Of a stretch of 64,000 nucleotides of DNA, positions 60,001 through 64,000 are shown piece by piece. The position numbers were made by a program. The DNA lies in the NCBI RefSeq assembly GCF_013167455.1, contig NZ_CP038328.1. The stretch is one strand, 5' to 3'. Source of the stretch: Escherichia coli O157:H7 (GTDB lineage: Bacteria; Pseudomonadota; Gammaproteobacteria; Enterobacterales; Enterobacteriaceae). The number at the start of each line of letters is the position of its first letter. Positions within the stretch are counted from its first letter, which is position 1.

Positions 60001-63000
60001 TTTTGTCAATTTTTTGGATGTCAGCAACTGATTAAACATATTCCCTGACCTGCCGCCACCAATGTACGACCAGCGCCCCCACATACGCAGTTTCCCCTGT
60101 ATCCAGATGCTTTCCAACGTATTGAGTCGAAGATGTTCTCCGCTTTTTCCGGTATTTGTTGGGTAAATCATAGAATGCCTTTCTCCCTCCAGATTTCCTG
60201 TGTGCGGAAAACGCCCTCCGCGTGCATCAGGCGCAATTCTTCTTTGGTGTAATCGCTGGTTTTTACCCGCCCGTCGATTAAATCGTGGCACGAGCTACAG
60301 GCAATTGCCGCCTGCATATCGTGTGGTTTTGTCGCTGTTCCACACGTCCCCGCCAGCCTGTAATGCGCCAGCACGGACGTTTCGGGATTGTGATTGCAGT
60401 AGCCAGGAATTCTGACTGTACACATCTGACCTTTTGCCGCTTTACGTAAATCCACCATTACGCAAACTCCAGTAGCTGCGCGGCCACATTTTCGACTTGT
60501 TCCGGAGAGGAAAATTTACGGAACAGGATCCAGTTCCACAGTACATTCAGCACAGATTTATAAACCTGCTGAAACTCGGTTTCGTCCATATTCGCAAACG
60601 CGATGGATTTCGCCCTGCGCCCACGGCTACCGTCCGGATAAAAATGCTCGGTGTAAAATCCGGCCTGAATGGTTACCCACTCGCGGAAAGCCTCAAACGA
60701 CTTTAGCAATGCCGTATCCCGGGTTCTGCGTGTCGCAACGGTATTCAGATATTGCTCTGCGGCATCACTCAGGGCTGGAGTATGTTCCCGACCTACTGAT
60801 TCGCACAGGAAATCAACGAAACCGGACACCAGTTCTCGTTCGCGAGGCGTGATCGCCCCACCGTTCGGAGTCCAGTAATCGAATCCCAGTTGCAGGAGTT
60901 TGAAAAAACGCTTGTGGAATGCGTAGTTACGCACACGCTTAAAGTCTGCGTGTATCCACTCACCGATTTTGATTTGATGCAAAAAATCGCAACTCTCCGG
61001 CGTCGCCGGGAGAAGTAATCCGGAAGAGGTTTGTTTGACCAGTTGTATATGCGCCATCGTAGTTCTCCGCTGGCGCAGTAGAATGGGTGTTCAGCCCGTT
61101 ATGTAGTATACCAGAATTAATGCCAATACTAACAGGATGCTCTGACTCGCAATTCATCCAGCAGTTTATCATTTCCCATAATGTCACTTACCCTCATCGG
61201 TAAAAAAATTGCCTTTCGACCATTACGATACATCATTGATTTTGGGGTTTCAGGGAAGTAATCCATTTCGACTATAACTGACAGGTCATCACGACGTATG
61301 ACTGCGTATTTGCAACTAAATAGTTTCTTTATTTTTTCCACGATGCCTCCGAGTTTATAAGTACAAACGGTTATATCCACATAGAGACAAAAATATTAAT
61401 CTGAAAAATATTTATTTCACGCCGTATATTTGATTATTTAATGTGCAGGTACAATGACTTTTATTTTTTGTTGTGTATATAATCAAATATATGGTTATTT
61501 TTCACCCTGCGCATTCAGCGCGCAACAAAAAACCCGCCGAAGCGGGTTAAGTGCGGGTGCGTTGAGGATGCCTGACACATCAGAGGTGGCGAGGGATTTC
61601 TCCCCCGCCAGGTCTCTTACTCCTCAGGTTCGTAAGCTGTGAAGACAGCGACCTCCGTCTGGCCGGTTCGGATTCGTACCTCGCAGAGGTCTTTCCTCGT
61701 TACCAGTGCCGTCACTATGACGGTTAAACAGATGACGATCAGGGCGACTAACATCGCCTTTTGCTGCTTCATAGCCTGCTTCTCCTTGCCTTTCGGCACG
61801 TAAGAGGCTAACCTACGTTTGTGAAGCATAGATTGGGCCTCAGATTAATGTTAAGCGTCTTGCAGGACGCGTAATGTTAACTGGGGCTTTTCTCTATCTG
61901 CCTTTTGGTGTTCATGCCTGAGGCAGATAGCCTCAAGCACCCATTATGATTTTAACCAAAGTCTTTGTATCTATAAAGAGGCACAATATTACTCGATATA
62001 TCATCATGTGTGCGCCTTATTCCAAACATTTTGGAAACAAAGCGTTCCCTCACTCCCGACATATCCAGTATCTGCTTCCAAGAAGATATATCCAGCAATT
62101 CAACTGCACAGGAAAGTAAGCGAGGTTTTTCCTCAGGGATTAACTCATCCCCCATCTCTCCTTTAATCGTCCCTCTTTTATTTAGATGGATAAATCCCGT
62201 TCTCATTTGTTGTGGCGTAATCAGCCCCAAAACCGTAGCACGATAAATACACATGCGAAGACTGATTTTCCATCGTTCTTTGAAATTAATTAGTGCATTC
62301 CAGTCAAGATGCGATCCTCGCATTTTAGGAAATTCATTAACGAACGAAACTCTAGGTACAAGGAATGCGCTCGAAAAATAATCCGCATGATGTTCTGTAA
62401 TTTTATCCCCTGTTATAATCCCTTCATGCAAAACAAGATGCCCCAGTTCATGACCGAGATCTGAGCGAAATCGACACACACTCTTTTTCGCGGAATTTCT
62501 AATTATCAATGGGCGTTTACTATTAATAGTAAACGCATCAATACGATCATCCACGCCAGATACATGAGCAACAACAACCCCAATACTTTCCACGAAATTA
62601 ACCATTGAAGATATCGGTCCCAGCCCCAAACCCCAATACCTTCTACAGGCCTCGGCAATTCTTTCAATATCTTCATCGGAGTTCAAAGGTAATCCGGACG
62701 TATCAGGAAAGTTCAATTCTGGAAGAACTATTTCTGTTTCCAAACACTTTACAAACTGCTCCAAAATTTCAGCTCGAGCCAGAATACTATTAGTTAAGGA
62801 CTGCGTCCTTGATCTCTTGCTTCTGAAATGGCAGTTCTCGCTGTCTAATGGTGATTTCCTTCCAGTGAAGAAAAACGACTCTTTAACATCCAGATAATCT
62901 GCAAGAGCTGTCAACATCTGAGATGAAGGGGGATAACCACGCTCTAACTTGTTTATAAATTGCCGAGTCACCCCCAAAGCAGTAGCAAGCTCTTCGCCCG

Positions 63001-64000
63001 TAACCCCTTTAGCCTGACGAGCTAATTTTAAGCAGTCACCACGATAATTACCTATAGAATCAAATAGTTCCATATTTATCACTATCTGCTTTTTTCGCAT
63101 TCTTAACACGCCGCTGCAAATTCAGCGGTGGTGTTTCCACGGCCTCTGGCAATACGTCAGTATTAGCTGCTTGTACTGGAGCATGGACTTTAGACACCAA
63201 TTCGTATCTACTCACTACATTATTTGATGAATCAAAACCTATCAGGGCTAAAAGCCACGTTGGAGGTTCAATATCTTCATCTTTTTTATTTGCAGATGGT
63301 AATTTTTCAGCCAGAACACGCCATGTAACATCATGTTCAAAATTAACATCATCTTCAAAAAGAGATAACTGACGACACTCAACATCATTTTTACATAAGC
63401 GATGTTTCTTTTTTGGTGAATCCAGTTTATCGGTCACAAACTGTAACGGCACCCTGTTCAGGGTAAACACAAAATTCAGAGGTGTTGAAAGAATCGCCAC
63501 TCCTTTGAGTTTTTTATGATTTTTTACAAGAAAGTTTTTTATCCATCCATAGGCCCTACATCCATTAATCCAGTTATCATCATACTCATGGCGATGGAAC
63601 CATAATTCGCCAAGTACGTTAGCAAATTGCTGAAGAAGATTGATAACAGATTTTTCATCCAAACAAGGATTGATTTCAAAACACGGTTGGAGATTCTGTT
63701 CAGACGGCATAAGGTATCCCTCTCTCTTAAAACTCCGCTCATCTTTACGCAAAATTTTATTTTTGTAAACCTAATCTTTAGGGGATTTCACGAATTCGTC
63801 AACCAGTCGAACAAACTTTAACCACAATACATATTTATCTACATTGATATGTGTATCGCTAACACTATTGTGGGCATTCAGCTAGTATTACCAAGCCTTC
63901 AGGTGCGCGAAGTTGTTCCGCACAGTGCAGCAGCGCATCAGTCGCTTCCTTAAGCGTCACAGTGTCGCCATCACCCAGTCCTGCAATTTTTGCGTGCCTG

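Follow-up and report, generated by a model that had tools for sequence, protein, structure and literature searches.

Analysis of a 64,000-nucleotide (nt) stretch of Escherichia coli O157:H7 DNA (contig NZ_CP038328.1 of assembly GCF_013167455.1; the whole stretch is referred to as the window) indicated that two overlapping minus-strand genes situated beside hok in a prophage, here called rmrT (63710-63060) and rmrA (63073-61952), form a bicistronic toxin-antitoxin (TA) or abortive-infection cassette of the RosmerTA type, Vmi480/Vmi470 subtype, which is carried as exchangeable prophage cargo with its own promoter. A probability of about 0.85 was assigned to this reading. It is carried by the homology of both proteins to a validated TA system, by a conserved architecture and promoter, by an intact peptidase site and by the location of the pair in a variable slot.

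A RosmerTA call was taken as matches to the RmrT and RmrA models on adjacent genes, following the PADLOC/DefenseFinder definition (Millman 2022). When PADLOC was run on the locus, the 216-amino-acid (aa) product of the first gene matched RmrT model PDLC03929 at 1.4e-18, covering residues 12-212, and the product of the second matched RmrA model PDLC03943 at 5.7e-107. The RmrT-matching gene was the same-strand neighbour overlapping the rmrA gene, and RmrA itself consisted of an XRE helix-turn-helix (HTH) fused to an M78 zinc (Zn) peptidase in which HEXXH was intact. Both families were already present in PHROGs, as 5786 (toxin, 6.6e-72) and 2439. The original prediction, made from the DNA alone, had proposed a RosmerTA-type toxin with an HTH-M78 antitoxin as TA or abortive-infection cargo, and this was borne out by the two PADLOC assignments and by the homology of both proteins to the validated Vmi480/Vmi470 pair. 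It had further suggested that the toxin might belong to an uncharacterised family. Given the PADLOC models, PHROG 5786 and the homology to Vmi480, which was validated in 2015, that suggestion could be retained only in part, in that neither Pfam nor NCBIfam has a domain for the toxin, no relative of it has a solved structure and no biochemical activity is assigned to it. The pair is not a new family, and its type is already recognised by defence-system finders.

In Vibrio mimicus, Luo et al. (2015) described Vmi480 (198 aa) and the downstream Vmi470, a 362-aa HTH-Zn-peptidase; vmi480 alone was lethal in E. coli, co-expression of vmi470 gave rescue, and vmi470 could not be deleted alone (PMC4671572). 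Earlier TA reports of this configuration are also cited by Millman et al. In BLASTP, the toxin in the window shared 27% identity with Vmi480 across 185 aa (E 2.6e-13). The antitoxin shared 43% with Vmi470, and Vmi480 and Vmi470 matched the same two PADLOC models. The termini of Vmi480 were read from the published primers (start MTKKPEFY, end QKKVSDE) and were fitted by protein P0134, the cluster of which includes a member named VMD_06480; this name is borne by P0206, to which the close relative P0134 is 99% identical.

An exhaustive profile search gave 126 clusters at 50% identity for the toxin family, nearly all of them of about 200 aa. An HTH-M78 gene of about 365 aa was seen downstream of the toxin in three of four distant members from unrelated contexts (a Proteus prophage, a metagenome contig by a Sua5-family gene and a contig by a resolvase), the contig of the fourth being too short for a neighbouring gene to be visible. 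The downstream gene is also kept in Vibrio, where the Vmi480 pair adjoins MobI, ResIII/YagJ, BrxR-WYL and MksE genes, and in members of a second E. coli subfamily. A profile search against a set of 5.8 billion proteins yielded no named relatives, most of the members retrieved being environmental Acetobacteraceae. None of 50,697 phage records was matched by the toxin in tblastn, and the sole match in a megablast of the cassette against phage records was 43 nt long and lay in the hok flank. A separate observation concerned protein P0036 (81 aa), in which the toxin C-terminus (...LQRRVKNAKK) is joined straight to QIVINMELFDS..., which extends the rmrA frame upstream. The entry comes from a short contig and represents a variant that is either frameshifted or mis-called where the two genes overlap.

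Open reading frame (ORF) calling and sequence inspection established that the two-gene cassette is real, and its coordinates agreed with a pair of coding sequences (CDSs) annotated by the NCBI Prokaryotic Genome Annotation Pipeline (PGAP) in the identical locus of E. coli O157:H7 ECP19-598 (WP_001138877.1 and WP_000418464.1, with the product names 'hypothetical protein' and 'helix-turn-helix domain-containing protein'). As the ECP19-598 record is 99.78% identical to window positions 49900-64000, the PGAP annotation could be transferred to the window. The layout originally read from the DNA was recovered throughout (Table 1), namely minus-strand genes overlapping by about 14 nt, a good Shine-Dalgarno sequence before the first gene and no recognisable motif in its product, an XRE HTH followed by HELGH in the second, and a position directly beside hok, where hokD and a full-length Rfam match to sok adjoin the cassette. 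The start of rmrA is not preceded by a good Shine-Dalgarno sequence, and the overlap with rmrT probably provides translational coupling. The Proteus genes overlap by 14 nt as well, and across homologues the junction varies between an overlap of 20 nt and a gap of 5 nt; the toxin-first gene order and the possession of an own promoter are as in the Vmi480/Vmi470 family. The block had also been described as more AT-rich than its flanks, which held for most of the flanking phage genes (GC 0.36-0.44 over 61800-63800 versus 0.50-0.57) but not for 61000-61600, which is likewise AT-rich, so that low GC is not unique to the cassette.

Within RmrA, HELGH occupies residues 208-212 (window 62452-62438), and H208, E209, H212, H216 and E227 were invariant in all seven RmrA sequences compared. 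H216 and E227 are probably further metal ligands, and the metallopeptidase site is intact. RmrA does not form an ImmR/ImmA-type pair, as its HTH and peptidase lie in one 373-aa protein and the neighbouring gene has no HTH. Nor is it found at the immunity region of the prophage, which has a separate divergent, cI/cro-like HTH pair together with ydaT about 4 kb upstream (17034-18211 of the ECP19-598 locus record). It was therefore determined that RmrA is not the main immunity repressor of the prophage, a role that had been raised at the outset as a possible refutation of the TA assignment.

Upstream alignment revealed a promoter block, GGTTGACAAAAA...TGCG(A/T)AAA(T/G)AT, common to this cassette, the second E. 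coli subfamily (P0193-type), Proteus and Vmi480, and thus shared by four of the six cassettes compared. A generic promoter/terminator scan gave hits no more numerous than those in shuffled sequences. The near-perfect palindrome upstream is a plausible candidate operator for the RmrA HTH, a proposal made from its sequence and position. Two tandem promoter-like units (63773-63803 and 63741-63770) were also observed, 33 nt apart and each ending in TAAAGAT. At the other end of the cassette, the rmrA stop is followed after only 9 nt (61943-61951), with no intrinsic terminator, by the hok/sok homology block; rmrTA transcription may therefore read into hok/sok.

The prophage is Rac-like and not Qin, as it carries intR, xisR, ralR, recET, kilR, ydaT and ydaV. 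Homology to the empty site and to sites with other cargo ends at 61942, the end of the sok model, and homology to other E. coli prophages resumes only in a DUF977 gene of the replication module, past the window end, the variable region reaching about 64110-64218 in window-equivalent coordinates. Elsewhere, the interval between DUF977 and hok/sok contains QueH, an alpha/beta hydrolase, DUF7167 with small ORFs, a RelA/SpoT-domain protein, DUF5677, an Sll1717 P-loop ATPase or S-adenosylmethionine (SAM) methyltransferases; it holds relB-relE in K-12-type Qin and is empty in BL21. In Rac/lambdoid prophages of E. coli, the interval from the DUF977 gene to hok/sok (61943 to about 64110; ECP19-598 record 12044-14210) is a hotspot of cargo exchange. 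Both the notion of swapped cargo in a variable slot beside hokD and the position of relBE beside hokD in K-12 Qin, on which the original prediction had drawn, were thereby confirmed. The truncated gene lying upstream of the cassette is probably the scar of an earlier cargo exchange. The cassette was present in 30 of 5426 complete E. coli genomes; the matches listed were 100% identical, and their hosts were isolates of human and cattle origin, O157:H7 strains among them. The toxin of the second E. coli subfamily is 40% and its antitoxin 57% identical to those of the cassette. This subfamily lies beyond hok, between that gene and rem/DUF968, and cassettes of this type are therefore inserted on either flank of hok.

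Table 1. Features of the cassette and its surroundings, in window coordinates
Feature	Position	Strand	Details and evidence
rmrT	63060..63710	-	ATG start; 216-aa toxin of Vmi480 family; ORF and Shine-Dalgarno sequence, PADLOC RmrT PDLC03929, PHROG 5786
rmrA	61952..63073	-	ATG start; 373-aa antitoxin, XRE HTH fused to M78 (ImmA/IrrE-type) Zn-peptidase; Pfam, PADLOC RmrA PDLC03943
rmrT stop/rmrA start overlap	63060..63073	-	14 nt; sequence
rmrT Shine-Dalgarno sequence	63717..63722	-	GAGGGA, 7 nt upstream of ATG; sequence
XRE-type HTH of RmrA	62873..63031	-	Residues 15-67; Pfam HTH_3, 1.5e-12
Peptidase_M78 of RmrA	62237..62590	-	Residues 162-279; Pfam, 2.6e-12
QLSLF of RmrT	63357..63371	-	Residues 114-118; canonical beta-sliding-clamp-binding pentapeptide; sequence
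Cassette promoter, sigma-70 type	63741..63769	-	-35 TTTACA (63769-63764), 16-nt spacer, -10 TAAAGA(T) (63747-63741); upstream alignment
Near-perfect 16-bp palindrome	63787..63802	-	TTGACGAATTCGTGAA; overlaps second upstream -35-like TTGACG; repeat finding
hok/sok type I TA locus	61528..61942	-	hokD CDS 61617-61772 (PGAP); sok 61767-61942, full-length Rfam match, 120 bits
Truncated gene remnant upstream of cassette, in variable region	63865..64000, past window end	-	PGAP pseudogene 'incomplete, missing N-terminus', ECP19-598 record 13966-14166

For the toxin, no match was obtained from Pfam (E<=10) or NCBIfam, nor from a Pfam scan of 110 family members; in the PDB, the best sequence-profile match had an E value of 0.66 and Foldseek gave no match, and a search of AFDB50 yielded members of the toxin's own family alone, all of them uncharacterised. 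The AlphaFold2 (AF2) model computed with the 110-sequence alignment (predicted local distance difference test score, pLDDT, 88; predicted template modelling score, pTM, 0.77) predicts two long helices, a beta-sheet core and a tail; the model from the single sequence reached a pLDDT of 36 and was discarded. A membrane-toxin mechanism like that of Kita RmrT was judged unlikely because RmrT has no hydrophobic segment, its maximum Kyte-Doolittle mean over 19 residues being 1.2. Also observed was a moderately conserved stretch, P-E-A-V-E-(L/I)-P-P-P-x-V, at residues 188-198 (window 63117-63149) in the otherwise unstructured C-terminal tail, modelled by AF2 as a block of pLDDT 92, which RmrA or a protease could contact or cleave. 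Nearer the N-terminus, the toxin has a conserved loop, D44-x-x-W47-x-x-G50.

The only lead on the mechanism of the toxin that goes beyond the PADLOC/DefenseFinder output is its clamp-binding motif, and it is a tentative one, read from the protein sequence. At the site aligned with QLSLF, the pattern Q-h-x-h-F or Q-h-x-h-x-h was present in 62 of the 110 members and a looser form in 89, compared with 10.7 +/- 3.1 clamp-pattern matches at any position in shuffled sequences; Q114 was found in 78 members and L117 in 80. By our own estimate from typical amino-acid frequencies, a protein of 216 aa would contain QL[SD]LF by chance with a probability of about 5e-4. An acidic linker of variable length directly follows the motif. 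The toxin mechanism considered most likely, though with the odds still somewhat against it, is that RmrT would occupy the hydrophobic cleft of DnaN via QLSLF and block replication, functionally like RipA and SocB. The broader proposal, that Vmi480-family RmrT proteins may be replication poisons which dock on the beta sliding clamp via QLSLF and are kept in check by RmrA and ClpXP, is slightly more doubtful. Clamp-like strings were also seen in other Rosmer toxins that are unrelated in sequence, at the N-terminus of RipA (MLNQDLFDS) and in OLC-716 RmrT (QLKLDL), and these are suggestive only.

The cassette is proposed to work as follows. Transcription of rmrT and rmrA together from the conserved promoter would be accompanied by translational coupling; RmrA would neutralise RmrT and would probably autoregulate the pair through its HTH, possibly at the palindrome. 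Neutralisation of RmrT probably needs ClpXP as well, a requirement reported both for RipAB and for the homologue in E101. RmrT would then be freed by infection or when RmrA/ClpXP control is lost, and the resulting growth stop would limit phage spread or stabilise the prophage.

Several points weigh against this interpretation. The pair was assigned as TA by homology, its expression, toxicity and neutralisation being predicted from sequence. The literature searched holds no report of phage protection by the PDLC03929 subtype, defence having been shown only for other toxin families, namely with OLC-716 (PDLC03935) and with the RosmerTA of Gordonia phage Kita. The cassette promoter was missed by the generic scan because its -10 element is weak. 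RmrT showed no similarity to OLC-716 RmrT by BLASTP or hhalign, and its hhalign probability with RipA was 0.3%; homology to either toxin was rejected on these negative sequence and profile comparisons. The QLSLF motif falls at the C-terminus of a helix predicted with confidence (109-117), whereas the usual binding form of clamp motifs is extended; the hydrophobic residues of QLSLF could have a purely structural role.

An alternative is that the cassette would serve the prophage purely as an addiction or stabilisation module, like the neighbouring hok/sok and without phage protection. Vmi480/470, which resides on a mobilisable genomic island, has been described solely as a TA (PMC4671572), the cassette adjoins another post-segregational killer, and phage-challenge results exist only for other RosmerTA subtypes. 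This is nevertheless considered unlikely, as other RosmerTA systems with homologous RmrA proteins do protect against phage, Vibrio cassettes of the Vmi480 type adjoin BrxR/WYL, Mks and ResIII genes, and the E. coli slot hosts other defence-like cargo such as the RelA/SpoT-domain protein and the Sll1717 ATPase. A different activity for the same toxin was also considered, in which RmrT would be a divergent PD-(D/E)XK restriction-endonuclease-like nuclease degrading DNA or RNA instead of a clamp binder. No conserved catalytic D...(D/E)xK was seen on strands 2 and 3, position 79 being D in 35 of the 110 members and N here, and strand 3 carrying R/K/Q90 and no conserved acidic residue across the 110 members. 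A nuclease was judged quite unlikely.

The pairing itself is questioned by an explanation in which the HTH-peptidase would act as an ImmR/ImmA- or CapH/CapP-like switch regulating prophage or neighbouring genes, the upstream gene being unrelated. The M78 domain is indeed common to ImmA, IrrE and CapP, and RmrA gave weaker PADLOC matches to capP (1e-11) and capH (0.0016). Against such a switch, however, HTH and peptidase are fused in RmrA, the prophage has its own immunity pair, no CBASS genes lie near the cassette, and the two genes move together in contexts without any prophage. Furthermore, the partner gene co-varies with RmrA, in that RmrA proteins paired with Vmi480-type toxins are 39-57% identical to one another versus 28% to OLC-716 RmrA. 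A switch of this kind is therefore regarded as highly improbable, and the RosmerTA cassette remains the preferred reading.

Elsewhere in the prophage, downstream of the antiterminator region, Rfam placed two small RNAs back to back, AgvB (anti-GcvB) at 59076-59137 on the plus strand (96.5 bits) and STnc100 at 59138-59330 on the minus strand (150 bits). At window positions 59417-59476, Rfam matched a tRNA (37 bits) and PGAP annotates a tRNA-Met (ECP19-598 record 9508-9578); ARAGORN found no tRNA in 55000-64000. This may be an atypical or degraded phage tRNA.

With these assignments, two genes labelled 'hypothetical' and 'HTH domain' in 30 complete E. coli genomes become a recognisable RosmerTA cassette, and both flanks of hok in lambdoid prophages emerge as exchange points for such cargo. 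For the toxin family, the founding member of which was validated in 2015, the clamp motif of five residues offers a mechanism that can be tested cheaply. Should the clamp model be true, E. coli E101 and Streptococcus pneumoniae would be linked in their ClpXP dependence by a common target, sequence-unrelated Rosmer toxins such as RipA and OLC-716 RmrT might converge on the same cleft, and possession of such a toxin could enable a prophage to block competing phages that use the host replisome.

Among named systems, Vmi480/Vmi470 of V. mimicus MGIVmi1 resembles the cassette in the homology of both proteins, in the toxin-first order, tight linkage and similar promoter block, and in protein sizes of about 200 and 365 aa. 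It differs in having a 5-nt gap where the cassette has a 14-nt overlap, in its diverged sequences, in residing on a mobilisable genomic island and not in an E. coli lambdoid prophage, and in carrying the hexapeptide form QISLEL in place of QLSLF. In E. coli E101, a prophage TA reported to be 33% and 42% identical to Vmi480 and Vmi470 makes clpP essential, and the toxin substitution T46S suppresses this (10.1101/2020.05.25.114553). The cluster of the E101 toxin (E101_02645; WP_001179380.1) was not found in cluster look-ups, in the supplement or in a paper search, and its family membership therefore rests on the 33% identity to Vmi480 given by the authors. Among Pectobacteriaceae, rmrA is an essential gene, and only those strains that carry RosmerTA depend on clpX (TNSEEK preprint).

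The OLC-716 RosmerTA (Millman et al. 2022) shares with the cassette a homologous RmrA (30% identity over 296 aa, E 2e-36) and a toxin gene upstream of an HTH-Zn-peptidase gene, and its antitoxin could not be deleted; its toxin belongs to the other family, PDLC03935, and its phage defence is verified experimentally. RipA/RipB (Spr1630/Spr1629) of S. pneumoniae likewise has the Rosmer architecture; cells depend on RipB only if they have the toxin, ClpX keeps RipA harmless, and neutralisation requires both RipB and ClpX (PMC12795458). This parallels the need for clpP alongside the E101 homologue of Vmi480. RipA acts on the hydrophobic cleft of DnaN, the site that binds QL[SD]LF motifs like that of the cassette toxin, and no clamp-binding motif is named in the RipAB paper (PMC12795458). 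RipA (243 aa), recovered here via a published primer, fell into PDLC03931, a third toxin family, and its homology to the cassette toxin was below detection. RipAB further differs in being chromosomal, in its Gram-positive host and in its described role in competence induction.

In ImmR/ImmA (ICEBs1), DdrO/IrrE and CapH/CapP, as in RmrA, an M78 Zn-peptidase is combined with an XRE HTH, and the peptidase is thought to sense a stress or infection signal. There, repressor and peptidase are separate and cleavage of the former by the latter leads to derepression, whereas RmrA is a fusion paired with a toxin. With relBE of K-12 Qin, the cassette shares the slot and orientation directly upstream of hokD, the proteins (the mRNA interferase RelE and RelB) being unrelated. 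The type VI TA system SocAB of Caulobacter crescentus has a toxin that binds the beta-clamp cleft and blocks replication, and ClpXP restrains this toxin. SocAB, which is also discussed in the RipAB paper (PMC12795458), would be a functional analogue of the mechanism proposed for RmrT, with no sequence relationship between them and with a proteolytic adaptor, SocA, in the place of the HTH-metallopeptidase RmrA; if the clamp model is true, Rosmer systems would represent a widespread analogue of SocAB.

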